Origin: Candidatus Enterousia onthequi
GTDB lineage: Bacteria; Pseudomonadota; Alphaproteobacteria; Rs-D84
Assembly: GCA_018064365.1 (NCBI GenBank)
Contig: JAGHVJ010000005.1
Span: forward strand, 7,982-71,981
Direction: 5' to 3'
DNA length: 64,000 nt
The notes under the pieces: generated by a model
Database searches by the model: none
What the model saw: only the letters and a program-made list of their open reading frames with translations
What the model was told of the DNA's origin: nothing
Part shown: in pieces, positions 9,411-63,409 of the stretch
Layout: the number at the start of each line of letters is the position of its first letter
Numbering within the stretch: the stretch's first letter is position 1
Translations under genes and position numbers: made by a program

Positions 9411-9484
9411 TGGTGCCCTAAGCAAGAATCGGACTTGCGACTCGTCCTTACCAAGGACGTGTTTTACCACTAGACTATTAGGGC
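9411..9484 (-). tRNA. tRNA-Thr (anticodon GGU), CCA encoded
   Basis: Manual cloverleaf on the reverse complement. Acceptor GCCCTAA/TTAGGGC. D-loop AGTGGTA. Anticodon stem CGTCC/GGACG with loop TTGGTAA. T-arm GCAAG-TCCGATT-CTTGC. Discriminator A, then CCA. Confidence 0.9.
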
Positions 9485-9542: not shown

Positions 9543-9570
9543 TTGCAATTAAAAAAAACTCTGTTATAAT
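9543..9570 (+). promoter_or_regulatory. Sigma70-like promoter for the CAU tRNA
   Basis: TTGCAA (9543-9548), 16 nt spacer, TATAAT (9565-9570). The tRNA 5' end lies 11 nt downstream. Confidence 0.55.
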
Positions 9571-9580
9571 GCGTTCACTT

Positions 9581-9657
9581 GGCGGGATAGCTCAGCTGGT
9601 TAGAGCAGTGGAATCATAATCCACGTGTCGGGGGTCCGAGTCCCTCTCCCGCTACCA
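9581..9657 (+). tRNA. tRNA with CAU anticodon (elongator Met or lysidine-type Ile2, not initiator), CCA encoded
   Basis: Acceptor GGCGGGA/TCCCGCT (G1-U72 wobble). D-arm GCTC-AGCTGGTTA-GAGC. Anticodon stem GTGGA/TCCAC with loop ATCATAA. T-arm GGGGG-TCCGAGT-CCCTC. Lacks the initiator-specific 1:72 mismatch and the three G-C pairs in the anticodon stem. Confidence 0.9.
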
Positions 9658-9664
9658 AGATAAT

Positions 9665-9687
9665 GACCGATTTTGTCGGTCTTTTTT
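9665..9687 (+). terminator. Intrinsic terminator after the tRNA
   Basis: GACCGA-TTTTG-TCGGTC followed by TTTTTT. Confidence 0.7.
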
Positions 9688-9703
9688 GTTTTATAAATAA
9701 ATG

Positions 9704-9732
9704 TTGAAAGTTTTGTTTTTGGGGTATAAAAT
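9704..9732 (+). promoter_or_regulatory. Candidate promoter of the aspS leader
   Basis: TTGAAA (9704-9709), 17 nt spacer, TAAAAT (9727-9732). This would start the transcript ~10 nt before Stem I of the T-box. Confidence 0.45.
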
Positions 9733-9751
9733 ACTCTTGTTTGATTTAAAT

Positions 9752-9913
9752 CGTGTGATGATACGACTGACAACCGTGGAGCGCGTTTTGGGTCTGGCCA
9801 AAAGTAAAAAAGCAGGGTGGCACCGCGCGAAAAAATCTTAGCGCCCCTGGATTTTAAGATTGAAATCGGTGCCGGAAAATTCAATTAAAGCACCGAAATT
9901 AAATAACAAGGTG
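9752..9913 (+). promoter_or_regulatory. T-box riboswitch (tRNA-Asp sensing) controlling aspS
   Basis: GGGTGGCACCGCG at 9815-9827 is embedded in a canonical antiterminator: A1 9813-9817/9845-9849, bulge UGGCACC, A2 9825-9828/9841-9844. Upstream is a K-turn-like stem at 9752-9785 with GAC in its apical loop. Lies directly upstream of an aminoacyl-tRNA synthetase gene. Confidence 0.8.
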
Positions 9914-9920
9914 TTAAAAA

Positions 9921-11699
9921 ATGTTATCTTTGAAATCTAAATACAGAACTCATACTTGTGGTGAGTTGAATATCAGCAATGTTGGCGAAGTCGTGACATT
10001 GTCTGGTTGGGTACATCGTAAACGCGATCACGGGTCGTTGTTGTTTGTGGACTTGCGTGATAATTATGGTATTACACAATGTGTGTTTGATGGGGGCGAT
10101 GAAAATCTGGAAAAAATTCGTCCGGAATCAGTGGTGCAAATCACAGGTCGTGTTGTCGCGCGTGAAGTAGAGGCGATAAACGATAAAATCCCAACAGGTC
10201 ATATTGAAATCCAGGCTTCGGCAAGTGATGTTAAAATTTTAACTAATTCCGAAGTGTTGCCTTTCCAAGTGTTTGGCGATGAAGAAACATCCGAAGAATT
10301 GCGTTATAAATATCGTTTCTTGGATTTGCGTCGTGAAAAATTACATCACAGTATTTTAATGCGCAATAAAATGATGAAATGGTTGCGTGATAAAATGTGG
10401 GATTTGGGTTTTTCAGAATTTCAAACTCCGCTTCTTACTGCGGATTCACCCGAAGGTGCGCGTAGTTTCTTGGTGCCATCACGTTTGCATCATGGTAAAT
10501 TTTATGCGTTGCCCCAAGCACCACAAATGTTTAAACAATTGTTGCAAGTGTCTGGGTTTGACCGTTATTTCCAAATTGCGCCATGTTTTCGTGATGAAGA
10601 TTTGCGTGCGGATAGATTGTTGGAATTTTACCAATTAGATATGGAAATGTCTTTTGTAGATGTGTCTGATATTCAGGCCGTTGGTGAAGAAATTATGCCG
10701 GAAATGGTTAAAACTTTTGCACCTGATGCAAATGTGTATCTAGCAATTCCGCATATATCTTATGATGATGCAATGTTGAAATACGGGTGCGATAAACCGG
10801 ATTTGCGTAATCCTATTTTAATCAGTGATGTGACGGAAATTTTCCGTGGTTCTGAATTTGGGATTTTTGCAAATGCAATTGAAAACGGCAGTGTTGTGCG
10901 TGCTGTGCCGGCACCAAATACCGCAGACCGTCCACGTTCTTGGTATGATAAATTGGTCGAATATGCGGTTAAAGAATTAGGTTTAGGCGGATTGGGGTAT
11001 ATCATTTTTGCCGATGAAGCCAAAGGGCCTGTCGCTAAGAAATTGGATACGGCGCGTATTGAAAAATTGCATGAAATTGCAGGGGACAATTCTTCGTTGT
11101 TCTTTATATGTGATAATGTTGAAAATGCAGCACGTGCAGCGGGCAAATTGCGTAATAAATTAGGTGCAGATTTAGGATTGGTAAATCCACGTGATTTCGC
11201 GTTTTGTTGGGTCGATAATTTCCCGTTCTTTGAACCGGATGAAGACCGCGCAGGTGCGCCAAAATTTACGCATAATCCTTTTTCGTATCCGATTGTGGAT
11301 TCTGTGGAAGAATTATCAACACGCGACCCATTTTCTATCAAGGCGGCACAGTTCGATATGGTGTTGAATGGTCTTGAAATTTGTAGTGGTGGTTTGCGTA
11401 ATTATAATCCAGAGATTATGAAAAAATGTTTCGAAATTGCTGGATATCCATTAGAGGCGGTCGAGAAAAACTTTTCTGGATTATATACTGCGTTTCAATA
11501 TGGTGCGCCACCGCATGGTGGATGTGCGTTTGGTATTGAACGTGTGGTGTCTGAAATTTTGGGCAATGGTGACAGTGTTCGTGAAATCGTTGCGTTCCCT
11601 GCAAATCAACGTGGTCAAGATTTGTTGATGGGATCTCCGAACGATGTTTCTGAACAACAGTTGCGTGATGTTCATATTCAGATTCGCAAGAAAAACTAA
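9921..11699 (+). CDS. aspS: Aspartate--tRNA ligase (bacterial type, 592 aa)
   Basis: N-terminal OB fold (RTHTCGELN...GWVHRKRDHGSLLFVDLRD). Class II motifs FQIAPCFRDEDLRADR and GGCAFGIERV. Bacterial insertion domain present. Confidence 0.97.
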   Translation: MLSLKSKYRTHTCGELNISNVGEVVTLSGWVHRKRDHGSLLFVDLRDNYGITQCVFDGGDENLEKIRPESVVQITGRVVAREVEAINDKIPTGHIEIQASASDVKILTNSEVLPFQVFGDEETSEELRYKYRFLDLRREKLHHSILMRNKMMKWLRDKMWDLGFSEFQTPLLTADSPEGARSFLVPSRLHHGKFYALPQAPQMFKQLLQVSGFDRYFQIAPCFRDEDLRADRLLEFYQLDMEMSFVDVSDIQAVGEEIMPEMVKTFAPDANVYLAIPHISYDDAMLKYGCDKPDLRNPILISDVTEIFRGSEFGIFANAIENGSVVRAVPAPNTADRPRSWYDKLVEYAVKELGLGGLGYIIFADEAKGPVAKKLDTARIEKLHEIAGDNSSLFFICDNVENAARAAGKLRNKLGADLGLVNPRDFAFCWVDNFPFFEPDEDRAGAPKFTHNPFSYPIVDSVEELSTRDPFSIKAAQFDMVLNGLEICSGGLRNYNPEIMKKCFEIAGYPLEAVEKNFSGLYTAFQYGAPPHGGCAFGIERVVSEILGNGDSVREIVAFPANQRGQDLLMGSPNDVSEQQLRDVHIQIRKKN

Positions 11700-56303: not shown

Positions 56304-58235
56304 ATGAAAGTTTGTGTCAATTACAACGATAAACGTTGGAAAAAATATAATATAGATTTTGAAAAAATTGCAAATGCAGTTGTTGGTAAAAAATGTCAAG
56401 ATGCCGAAGTGTCTATTATATTGACAGATGATGCGGAAATTCACGCGTTGAATAAAATGTATCGTAATATTGATAAACCGACAAATGTTTTGTCTTTTGA
56501 ATTGGATGATGATATTTTGCTGGGTGATATTTATATATCGTTGGATACTGTTGTGACCCAGGCGCGTGATGCGGGTATTTCTGTGGAGGCACATACGGCG
56601 CATATGGTTGTACATGGTATGTTTCATTTATTGGGGTATGACCATTTGACAGAAAGAGAAGCGTGCGTAATGGAATCCAAAGAAATAAAAGTTTTGAAAA
56701 AACTGGGTATAAAAAATCCGTATGGTGATGAACAAAGTTTTCCATGGTGGAAGTATGTTGCAACGGGTGTGTTGGGCGCGGTTGCTGCGTTTGGTTTTGC
56801 ACCGTTTAATTTATGGTGGTTGACTGTTTTGTCTGTGGCTGGGGCGTATTGGTTGTTGTGTTCTGGTGGGGCAAAGGTTGGCTTTTGGCGTGCTTGGTTG
56901 CGTGCAATGCCGTTTGGTGCAATGTATGCGATATCTATGTTTTGGTGGGTGTTAAATTCGATTTATGTGGTGCCTGAACTGGCACGTCAGTTTGCGATAT
57001 GGACTGTGCCGGGGTTGGTTGGCATTGGTATCGTTGGTGCAATTATATTTACAATTCCGTTTGTATTGACATTGTGTATATACATAAAATCTGGGGCGAG
57101 ACCAATTTTGTTTGCTGGGGCTTGGATGAGTGTCTTGTGGTTGCGCGAATGGTTGTTTACTGGTTTTCCGTGGAATCCGATTGCAAATATTATGTTGCCG
57201 TATCCGGTGGTTTCTAATTCTATGTCTGTATTTGGGGCGTTGGGGTTGACGTTTATTATTGTTGGATTGGTGGCGACGGTTGTACAAATGTTGTGTAATC
57301 GGCGTAATTGGGTATTACGTTGGGTGTTTTTGTTTTTTGTTTTATTGTTGGGTATCGGCATTCTTGGTGGATATAATAATATCAAATTGTCTGGTTTGGG
57401 TGATGATTCTGGTGTTGTGCGTATTGTACAACCTGCGACGACACAGCAAAAAAAGATTTCTTTATCGCGTGTAGATGCATTGAATCAGGCAAAAAATAGA
57501 GTTCAATCGTTGATTGATTTGGCGGGTGATGTGAGTAATGTTGATTTGGTTGTATATCCAGAAACATCGTATCCGTTTGTTTTGTTGCGTAATGATGTAT
57601 TGCCTATTGCAGAAAAATTAAACAAGCGCGTTATCATTGGTTCAAATGTGTATGATGCGGGTAATGTTTATAATTCTTTGGTTGTTTCAGGAGCAGATGG
57701 TTCGATATTTGATATATATGATAAATCGCATTTAGTGCCTTTTGGTGAATATGGACCGATTAAATTTGTGCCTGCGCCGGCAAATTTAACCGCGGGTGAT
57801 GGCGCGACTGTTATATCGATAGATGGTAGTGCAGGGCGAAATTTCGTTTTTGCACCGGCTGTATGTTATGAAATTATTTTTTCTGATGCAGTTGTAAAAC
57901 AATCTGGGGTAGATGCGATTATAAATATAACAAATGATACTTGGTTTGGAAAAACACCGGGGACGTATCAACATTTGGATATGGTGCGTCGTGCAGCAAT
58001 AGAATCAGGAGTTCCGGTTATACGTGCGAATTATTCTGGTATCAGTGCTTTTGTTGGTGCAGATGGGGCGATAATTTCGCAGTTGCCGATTGGTCAGGTT
58101 GGAATTTTGGACGGAACAGTACATGGTTCGCATATGACATTATATCGTATGTTGGGTCGTGATGCGTGGTTTTTTATAATCTTTTTGATTGCGTTTTTTG
58201 CCGGATTTGTTGCGTATAGAGCAGATAAAGAATAA
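56304..58235 (+). CDS. Single 643-aa ORF fusing endoribonuclease YbeY (aa 1-140) to apolipoprotein N-acyltransferase Lnt (aa ~145-643)
   Basis: YbeY part: TNVLSFE, HGMFHLLGYDH. Lnt part: multi-TM N-domain, then CN-hydrolase motifs VVYPETS, YDKSHLVPFGEY, VCYEIIF. There is no stop codon and no ATG between the two parts. Confidence 0.85.
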   Translation: MKVCVNYNDKRWKKYNIDFEKIANAVVGKKCQDAEVSIILTDDAEIHALNKMYRNIDKPTNVLSFELDDDILLGDIYISLDTVVTQARDAGISVEAHTAHMVVHGMFHLLGYDHLTEREACVMESKEIKVLKKLGIKNPYGDEQSFPWWKYVATGVLGAVAAFGFAPFNLWWLTVLSVAGAYWLLCSGGAKVGFWRAWLRAMPFGAMYAISMFWWVLNSIYVVPELARQFAIWTVPGLVGIGIVGAIIFTIPFVLTLCIYIKSGARPILFAGAWMSVLWLREWLFTGFPWNPIANIMLPYPVVSNSMSVFGALGLTFIIVGLVATVVQMLCNRRNWVLRWVFLFFVLLLGIGILGGYNNIKLSGLGDDSGVVRIVQPATTQQKKISLSRVDALNQAKNRVQSLIDLAGDVSNVDLVVYPETSYPFVLLRNDVLPIAEKLNKRVIIGSNVYDAGNVYNSLVVSGADGSIFDIYDKSHLVPFGEYGPIKFVPAPANLTAGDGATVISIDGSAGRNFVFAPAVCYEIIFSDAVVKQSGVDAIINITNDTWFGKTPGTYQHLDMVRRAAIESGVPVIRANYSGISAFVGADGAIISQLPIGQVGILDGTVHGSHMTLYRMLGRDAWFFIIFLIAFFAGFVAYRADKE

Positions 58236-63340: not shown

Positions 63341-63403
63341 ATGATTTTTGAAAAGTTTATTTTTACTATGACTACTACTACAACCCCTGTGGGGGTGCGG
63401 TAA
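63341..63403 (+). promoter_or_regulatory. Candidate Thr-rich leader mini-ORF upstream of thrS (MIFEKFIFTMTTTTTPVGVR, or the 11-codon version from ATG 63368)
   Basis: ACT ACT ACT ACA ACC at 63371-63385, in frame with ATGs at 63341 and 63368 and a TAA at 63401. Promoter-like TTGACT-17-TATGAT at 63306-63334. No convincing Shine-Dalgarno. Confidence 0.3.
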
Positions 63404-63409
63404 TTTTAT

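Follow-up and report, generated by a model that had tools for sequence, protein, structure and literature searches.

A probable, strongly reduced T-box riboswitch in the aspS leader of gut and rumen Alphaproteobacteria

Introduction

T-box riboswitches are known overwhelmingly from Firmicutes, where more than 95% of them occur, and within the Proteobacteria only the leuA leaders of Geobacter and Pelobacter have been named (PMC2494555). T-boxes that combine a short Stem I with translational control are found mostly in Actinobacteria (PMC7583486), and the class II model of TBDB was run only on that group (PMC7778990). Here, we describe the leader of aspS, the gene for aspartate--tRNA ligase (AspRS), in the alphaproteobacterium Candidatus Enterousia onthequi. 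The leader lies in a stretch of 64,000 nucleotides, referred to below as the window, from GenBank assembly GCA_018064365.1 (contig JAGHVJ010000005.1, positions 7,982 to 71,981 of the forward strand). We propose that it is probably a strongly reduced T-box riboswitch that senses tRNA-Asp, is transcribed from its own promoter, and acts on translation. A preliminary description of the same DNA had called both the element a T-box and its host an unusual one for this family. We concur on the host, as judged from MAG labels and gene content: the relatives that carry the element are low-GC alphaproteobacterial metagenome-assembled genomes (MAGs) of gut and rumen, the closest of them, by their record names, from sheep, goat, and other ruminant guts, and a full-text literature search for T-box riboswitches together with Alphaproteobacteria returned no paper with a title or abstract on such an element.

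The closest described systems are the actinobacterial short-Stem-I T-boxes (PMC7583486, PMC12647780). The aspS leader shares with them a specifier codon held in an apical loop above a K-turn, the lack of a distal platform for binding the tRNA elbow, an arrangement of helix A1, bulge, and helix A2 with a UGGN motif, a position upstream of an aminoacyl-tRNA synthetase gene, and an output through accessibility of the Shine-Dalgarno (SD) sequence, which for the aspS leader is predicted. The actinobacterial T-boxes, however, keep Stem II, a IIA/B pseudoknot, and Stem III, which are reported to be essential for binding and discriminating tRNA, and none of these is conserved in the aspS leader. The minimal construct in the literature is a 166-nt core from M. 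tuberculosis (PMC7583486, PMC12647780), whereas the sensor of the aspS leader spans about 98 nt (9752–9849) within a whole leader of about 180 nt. The leader differs further in its alphaproteobacterial host, in the gene that it precedes, and in an extra hairpin formed by two elements that we call E2 and E3. Judged by the class II criteria of TBDB, the apical specifier loop is present, and Stem II and the IIA/B element are absent.

Results

By direct reading of the window, the T-box 13-mer GGGTGGCACCGCG (that is, GGGUGGCACCGCG) was located at 9815–9827 on the + strand, which carries all parts of the leader. It falls within an antiterminator-type (anti-sequestrator) element at 9813–9849 that is built from helix A1 (CAGGG 9813–9817 with CCCTG 9845–9849), the 7-nt T-box bulge UGGCACC (9818–9824), and helix A2 (GCGC 9825–9828 with GCGC 9841–9844), the last closed by a 12-nt loop (9829–9840). 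Upstream stands a short Stem I (9752–9785). Its K-turn-like base is a 5-bp C-stem (CGTGT 9752–9756 with GCGCG 9781–9785), above which come the K-turn itself (bulge GAU 9757–9759; tandem G.A/A.G of 9760–9761 with 9779–9780), a 4-bp upper stem (TACG 9762–9765 with CGTG 9775–9778), and a 9-nt terminal specifier loop, ACTGACAAC (RNA ACUGACAAC), at 9766–9774. This loop presents the Asp codon GAC (9769–9771), preceded by U9768 and followed by the conserved purine A9772. The codon agrees with the regulated gene: the 592-residue product of aspS (9921–11699) matches the aspartate--tRNA ligase family NF001750 with 707.3 bits against a cutoff of 443. A purine-rich linker, AAGU-N-A-N-AA (9802–9810), lies directly 5' of A1. 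The coordinates previously given for the 13-mer, A1, the bulge, A2, the K-turn stem, the loop, and a linker hairpin discussed below were all correct on re-reading, as was the naming of the downstream gene.

The window has a G+C content of 36–41%, and the 13-mer occurs in it once exactly, compared with 0.01 copies expected from dinucleotide shuffles. When two mismatches were allowed, the pattern was unenriched (three copies against 2.2 expected), and the scan with mismatches revealed no second T-box-like element in the 64 kb.

We scanned AspRS proteins in one genome per GTDB species and obtained 80 loci. A 12-mer, GGTGGNACCNCG, stands about 100 nt upstream of aspS in L001–L011 and in L028; it is absent from the remaining 68 of the 80 loci, including the next-closest relatives, L012–L015. 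The AspRS proteins of L001–L011, whose MAGs are labelled Alphaproteobacteria, proteobacterium, or Rickettsiales, are 73–88% identical to that of the window, and that of L028 is 52% identical. A scan of metagenomes with a combined linker and T-box pattern, in which the discriminator position was left open, returned mostly canonical Firmicute T-boxes together with four new aspS leaders (contigs L105, L143, L148, and L156), and no minimal T-box on any gene other than aspS. The window, L001–L011, and these four contigs form the set of 16 leaders to which the following counts refer.

The leaders were cut at invariant anchors into blocks of fixed length, which places them in a gapless register, and the proposed pairs were counted. 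Standard pairs occupy 93.8% of the 384 cells (16 leaders, 24 pairs), as against 76% in column shuffles and 36–52% when the partners were slid by one to three columns. Changes on both sides were found at 15 of the 24 pairs, and the covariation score of 0.573, compared with 0.222, was reached by none of 500 shuffles. All six pairs of the C-stem show such changes with 90.6% of its cells paired, and its sequence varies in almost every leader while pairing is kept (CGUGU/GCGCG, AAAUAU/GUAUUU, ACAAUGU/GCAUUGU, and UCAGAUGU/AUAUCUGA, for example). The upper stem is 93.8% paired, with both-sided changes at two pairs and an invariant loop-closing G-C pair, and within the K-turn the 5' G and A and the 3' A are invariant and the 3' G nearly so. 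A1 is 100% paired and has changed on both sides at two pairs (CAGGG/CCCUG versus UCGGG/CCCGA), and by eye the helix in L028 is CAAGG/CCUUG. A2 is 93.8% paired; no change is seen in its core, and the part of it that reaches into the loop covaries.

Conservation of sequence follows the same elements. The bulge reads UGGCACC without exception in the 16 leaders, and in L028 as well. The specifier codon is GAC in 15 of the 16 and AAC (Asn) in L003; its A and C and the A that follows are invariant, the base on its 5' side is U in 15 leaders, and loop positions 1–3 and 8–9 are variable. Specifier and T-box are separated by 48–51 nt in the 12 genome-derived leaders and by the same narrow range in the four from metagenomes. 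Four linker positions (A9802, A9807, A9809, and A9810) never vary, and conservation is 90% or higher at A9803, G9804, and U9805. Outside the conserved elements, loops and linkers cannot be aligned among leaders, and elements kept amid such unalignable surroundings bear what we read as the signature of selection on structure.

The 16 leaders represent one clade, and some of the covariation counts reflect shared ancestry; the slid controls speak strongly against a covariation artefact. Its recurrence ahead of aspS, with covariation, in 15 other sequences shows that the leader is more than a chance arrangement. A chance likeness to the T-box consensus, in whose favor one could cite only the low Rfam score reported below, is already refuted by the 0.01 exact matches expected per window together with the conserved position and covariation in these 15 sequences, and we assign it a negligible probability. 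As far as sequence comparison can establish, the leader is homologous to T-boxes, and its helices are conserved and covary. The T-box identity first suggested from the window alone was thus upheld by the comparison of related aspS leaders that the preliminary description had recommended: the antiterminator with its 7-nt UGGC bulge, the K-turn, and the apical GAC-plus-A loop are conserved and covary, and the helices persist through compensatory changes in the 15 other leaders. By inference, the leader would also bind tRNA, sense its charging state, act on translation, and switch by one of the routes considered below. A covariance model built from the 16 leaders (R1) scores the window, itself a member of the training set, at 94.8 bits; a search with it across the window and the 80 genome loci gave no other copy and missed L028.

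In all 16 leaders, a 4-bp helix leads directly into the 9-nt specifier loop, where Stem I ends with neither AG bulge nor distal loop, and the distal platform on which the tRNA elbow stacks is absent. The gap between Stem I and A1 is only about 25 nt, and there is therefore no Stem II and no IIA/B pseudoknot. The lack of distal Stem I and Stem II, which had been pointed out in the window, hence extends to the whole set. Stem III is missing as well, in that no conserved hairpin lies between Stem I and A1 in the 16 leaders. The preliminary description had placed the linker hairpin UUUUGG-GUCUGG-CCAAAA (9786–9803) at the Stem III position. We rejected this hairpin as a Stem III of the family: it occurs in the source genome only and has no counterpart in the 15 relatives, even in the closest (L001, L002, and L004). 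Since the hairpin is specific to one genome, the class is even more reduced than was proposed. Eight relatives use the corresponding stretch differently: it supplies the 3' strand (CCC) for an additional helix, GGG/CCC, in the lower part of Stem I; in L156 this helix is AGG/CCU.

The linker AAGU-N-A-N-AA resembles the RRRxG...AA string that surrounds Stem III in canonical discriminators (PMC7583486), with the hairpin gone, and may be homologous to it. Since the same AAGUNAUAA stretch is found nine bases ahead of GGGUGG in many Firmicute T-boxes from metagenomes, we take it to be a T-box-like trait, and it may have the same role in the leader of the window. As a side observation, many canonical Firmicute T-boxes in L081–L160 have AAGUNAUAA at exactly 9 nt before GGGUGG, too short a spacing for any hairpin to fit between it and A1, and the base of their bulge that pairs with the discriminator is mostly A or U.

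Compared with the canonical Firmicute T-boxes (RF00230, including glyQS, the smallest that is well studied), the aspS leader has in common GGGUGGNACCGCG, the antiterminator geometry, the GA/K-turn motif, the codon followed by a purine, and, in many metagenome examples, the A-rich AAGUNAUAA stretch before A1. It lacks, by contrast, their long Stem I with AG bulge and distal loop, their Stem III, and their terminator. The aspS leader thus appears to descend from T-boxes yet fails several of the features by which the canonical and the actinobacterial types are defined.

The leader of L028, from a Rickettsiales MAG of water deer colon, bears on how this form may have arisen. It has in common with the window's leader the gene aspS, the host class, the UGGCACC bulge, the lack of a terminator, the K-turn, and a 9-nt terminal loop (UUUAACACA) with the codon at positions 4–6 and an A after it. 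L028 alone keeps a Stem II with an AGUA S-turn, a IIA/B-like hairpin with CCGUCA, and an AAGAG-Stem III-GAAG segment; folding of this leader gave no clear SD sequestrator. We read its layout as that of the actinobacterial ultrashort-Stem-I T-boxes. L028 looks architecturally intermediate, and the window's class looks like a further reduction of the same layout.

At the equivalent position of the loop, L003 (2848–2856) and L028 (about 2842–2850) have AAC (Asn) where the others have GAC, and both keep the UGGC bulge. A non-discriminating AspRS also charges tRNA-Asn, which makes Asn the one other amino acid tied to AspRS. Many Alphaproteobacteria lack AsnRS, and bacterial tRNA-Asp and tRNA-Asn carry G73. 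The AAC variants fit a non-discriminating AspRS, and they suggest that some lineages may tune aspS to uncharged tRNA-Asn. A T-box is reportedly tied to the tRNA-dependent Asn pathway of Clostridium acetobutylicum (Saad et al. 2012, J Biol Chem 287:20382, as cited in PMC4206432); going by the title of that report, it would provide a precedent from an indirect Asn-tRNA pathway that fits the AAC codons of L003 and L028, the host there being a Firmicute. We speculate that the U on the 5' side of the codon could pair with A37 of the tRNA and so add a fourth base pair.

Transcription of the leader is predicted to start at a promoter of its own. A sigma-70-type site (TTGAAA, 17-nt spacer, TAAAAT; 9704–9732, + strand) matches the consensus at 10 of 12 positions, is the sole promoter-like site in 9550–9960, and would place the transcription start near 9739–9741. 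Similar promoter hexamers are seen by eye 20–45 nt upstream of Stem I in the relatives, and a tRNA-Met terminator (9665–9681) closes the upstream transcription unit. No intrinsic terminator was found downstream of the sensor: there is no hairpin with a U tract between 9849 and 9921, and no relative's platform ends in a U run. Because there is no terminator before the AUG, control is most likely translational. A transcription terminator was accordingly rejected as the output of the leader. A Firmicute-type T-box that attenuates transcription by a terminator competing with the antiterminator would represent the commonest T-box mode (PMC7583486), but the single hairpin of the region that resembles a terminator and has a U tract is that of the upstream tRNA-Met, and we think this explanation highly improbable.

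The output of the leader is instead most likely exerted on translation through an expression platform composed of E2, E3, and the SD. E2, UCGGUGCC (9866–9873, with CGGUGCC at 9867–9873), is the 5' arm of the platform hairpin; E3, GCACCGA (9890–9896), is the 3' arm and a candidate anti-SD; the SD is AAGGUG (9908–9913), and the start codon of aspS is the AUG at 9921–9923, all on the + strand. This platform is present in 15 of 16 leaders. E2 reads GGGUGCC in most relatives, and all 15 leaders that bear the platform share GGUG[C/U]C. Its pairing with E3 is kept through differing E3 sequences (GCACCC, GGUACCC, GGUGCCC, GGCGUCC, GCUCCCGA, and others), with hairpin energies of -6.4 to -18.6 kcal/mol across leaders. 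The SD is AAGGGAC in most relatives. E2 is complementary to the entire T-box bulge (UGGCACC with GGUGCCR) and also to the 3' strand of the antiterminator (GCGCCC with GGGUGC), and E3, together with the U-rich loop just 5' of it, is complementary to the SD-AUG region.

In constrained folding, the ON state, consisting of the antiterminator and the E2:E3 hairpin, leaves the SD free in most leaders, and the modelled OFF states, in which the SD is paired, lie within a few kcal/mol of it. Three OFF routes emerge from the models. In the first, E2 would pair with the T-box bulge and free E3 for the SD-AUG region; this state is the minimum-free-energy fold in the window (also when its full leader is folded), in L002, and in L004, and it lies 0.1–4 kcal/mol above ON elsewhere. 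We consider it the most likely route, at somewhat less than an even chance. In the second, which we put forward tentatively, CCCU of the A1 3' strand would pair with AGGG of the SD across the E2:E3 hairpin; it lies within about 3 kcal/mol of ON in leaders with the SD AGGGA. The third, a doubtful candidate, would place E2 on the antiterminator 3' strand GCGCCC. It lies 3–10 kcal/mol above ON with two exceptions: in the window it comes within 1 kcal/mol of ON, and in L007, with a helix of 12 bp, it slightly surpasses ON in stability. Covariation cannot choose among these routes because the partner strands are invariant. E2 is conserved and E3 is variable, however, and a route that gives E2 a second partner is therefore favored.

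The same T-box-derived sensor could also have a simpler output, with CCCU of the A1 3' strand as the anti-SD for AGGG and the E2:E3 hairpin as a mere spacer. Relative to ON, the CCCU-on-AGGG state of the SD-AGGGA leaders lies anywhere between 2.9 kcal/mol lower and 2.7 kcal/mol higher in energy, and it is the minimum-free-energy fold in L003, L006, L007, L008, and L010. It is the only route that L009, which has neither E2 nor E3, could use, and it mirrors the sequestrator logic of the actinobacterial T-boxes (PMC7583486). Yet it leaves the conservation of E2 beside a variable E3 unexplained, its helix comprises merely 3–4 bp, and in the window, L001, L002, and L004, where the SD is GGUGU, it is 2–8 kcal/mol worse than ON. 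On balance, we regard so simple an output as possible but unlikely.

One other pairing was observed in this region. AAUCUUA in the antiterminator loop (9834–9840) is complementary over 7–8 bp to UAAGAUU just downstream of A1 (9855–9861), and, if formed, the pairing would create a pseudoknot or leave the antiterminator 3' strand enclosed. It is common only to the window, L001, L002, and L004, and shows no covariation.

The aspS leader adjoins two tRNA genes, for tRNA-Thr(GGU) (9411–9484, - strand) and for a tRNA with the anticodon CAU (9581–9657, + strand), which are kept in most of L001–L012. The tRNA-Thr gene of L008 ends some 45 nt short of Stem I, and L004 and L010 have, just upstream of the aspS leader, a promoter-like site and after it an apparent tRNA 3' fragment (...GGGGCACCA).

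The other aminoacyl-tRNA synthetase genes of the window, serS, gltX, and thrS, have no T-box by scans with the 13-mer pattern and with R1, so T-box control is no general habit of the genome. A short open reading frame (ORF; ATG ACT ACT ACT ACA ACC CCT GTG GGG GTG CGG TAA, 63369–63404, + strand) that lies some 80 nt ahead of thrS (start 63484) encodes MTTTTTPVGVR with five successive Thr codons and is followed by overlapping hairpins (CCCCUGUGGGG; GUGCGG...UUGCAC; GCACAUAUUUUUUGUGC). This ORF and its hairpins look like a Thr leader-peptide attenuator for thrS, in the same genome as the aspS T-box. Elsewhere in the window, a single ORF of 643 residues (56304–58235, + strand) matches YbeY, an rRNA maturation RNase, at residues 10–137 and Lnt, the apolipoprotein N-acyltransferase, at residues 204–589; it represents either a fusion gene or a pair of neighboring genes that share one frame without an intervening stop. 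Every 4-kb bin of the window shows a positive GC skew (range 0.04–0.35), and the cumulative curve climbs with no reversal, so that a single replichore appears to contain the entire window, G being in strong excess over C on the + strand.

Discussion

We propose that the aspS leader reads the charging state of tRNA-Asp through two contacts. The anticodon GUC of uncharged tRNA-Asp would pair with GAC in the 9-nt terminal loop of the K-turn-bearing Stem I, while the free tRNA 3' end, G73-C-C-A, would pair with UGGC of the 7-nt bulge between A1 and A2. Together, the two contacts would stabilize the A1/A2 fold, so that E2 pairs with E3, the SD stays open, and aspS is translated. With charged tRNA-Asp, the A1/A2 fold would not be stabilized, and the leader would refold such that the SD is paired and translation is off.

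Several results weigh against this proposal. RF00230 at its gathering threshold (93 bits) has no match in the window or in 12 relatives, where only tRNAs were found. On the 311-nt leader, RF00230 reaches 26.1 bits (E 4e-4), which is sub-threshold but non-random, and far below 93. The Rfam search advised in the preliminary description thus gave nothing at the gathering threshold and a match only below it. The alignment is confident only at the antiterminator (posterior probability near 1), and most model positions of Stem I are skipped, 87 in the window and 80 in L028, whose leader scores 49.4 bits (E 4.7e-10). To treat the lack of a significant covariance-model hit as a refutation, as had been suggested, would wrongly reject the element at Rfam's gathering threshold; threshold-based Rfam annotation misses T-box variants of this kind. 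Folding of the single sequence likewise did not recover the T-box fold and did not stand out from shuffles (z = 0.12 for the core and -1.06 for the full leader). Such folding is uninformative for K-turn and bulged structures, and the case from the window alone would be weak. There is also no tRNA-Asp gene in the window or at the aspS loci, which contain only tRNA-Thr, tRNA-Met, and tRNA-Gln, in which to check G73 and the anticodon GUC.

On the side of the output, L009 lacks both E2 and E3, and the platform of L001 folds differently. The E3:SD duplex has a mean z of -1.5 relative to shuffles, with at most 8% of shuffles as good in 7 of 14 leaders, so that this complementarity is only moderately above chance. 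The precise switching routes among the modelled alternatives are candidates only.

On the side of the sensor, the objection comes from the parts that are missing. A truncated Stem I is reported to need Stem II for appreciable tRNA binding, and hardly any binding is reported for an antiterminator that lacks Stem III (PMC7583486, PMC12647780). With Stem II and Stem III both missing, tRNA binding by the aspS leader may therefore be weak or may depend on an unseen feature. These absences would also suit a decayed T-box that no longer senses tRNA and is kept for mRNA stability or for binding AspRS or another protein, given that Stem II and Stem III are reported to be needed for tRNA binding in comparable T-boxes (PMC7583486) and that thermodynamic folding gives no signal. 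In such a relic, however, one would not expect the strongest constraint in the 16 leaders to fall on the motifs that contact tRNA, namely the codon with its following A and the UGGC with its discriminator-matching C, nor the sole codon change seen to be one to Asn, which is linked to AspRS function. Mimicry of the anticodon arm for AspRS binding is countered by the loop itself, which holds the codon GAC and not the anticodon GUC. We therefore find a relic improbable, and continue to regard a T-box that senses tRNA-Asp as the likely identity of the leader.

A more far-reaching version of this reading can be offered, although we think it unlikely to hold in every part. The leader would be the smallest natural T-box yet described, its sensor of about 98 nt relying on two tRNA contacts only, without Stem II, pseudoknot, Stem III, or elbow platform, and it would switch by strand displacement. 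In the OFF state, E2 (GGGUGCCR, ending in GCCR) would mimic the tRNA acceptor end in the bulge; uncharged tRNA-Asp would displace E2, which would capture E3 and so free the ribosome-binding site; and the specifier would have been retuned between Asp and Asn to suit a non-discriminating AspRS.

If our proposal is true, a conserved T-box without these parts would define the true minimal tRNA-sensing core, some compensating interaction would remain to be found, and the leader would offer a compact scaffold for engineered tRNA-responsive switches. The element would extend T-boxes to Alphaproteobacteria of gut and rumen, a lineage with none reported in the literature searched. Since threshold-based annotation misses such variants, the distribution of the T-box family is probably underestimated.

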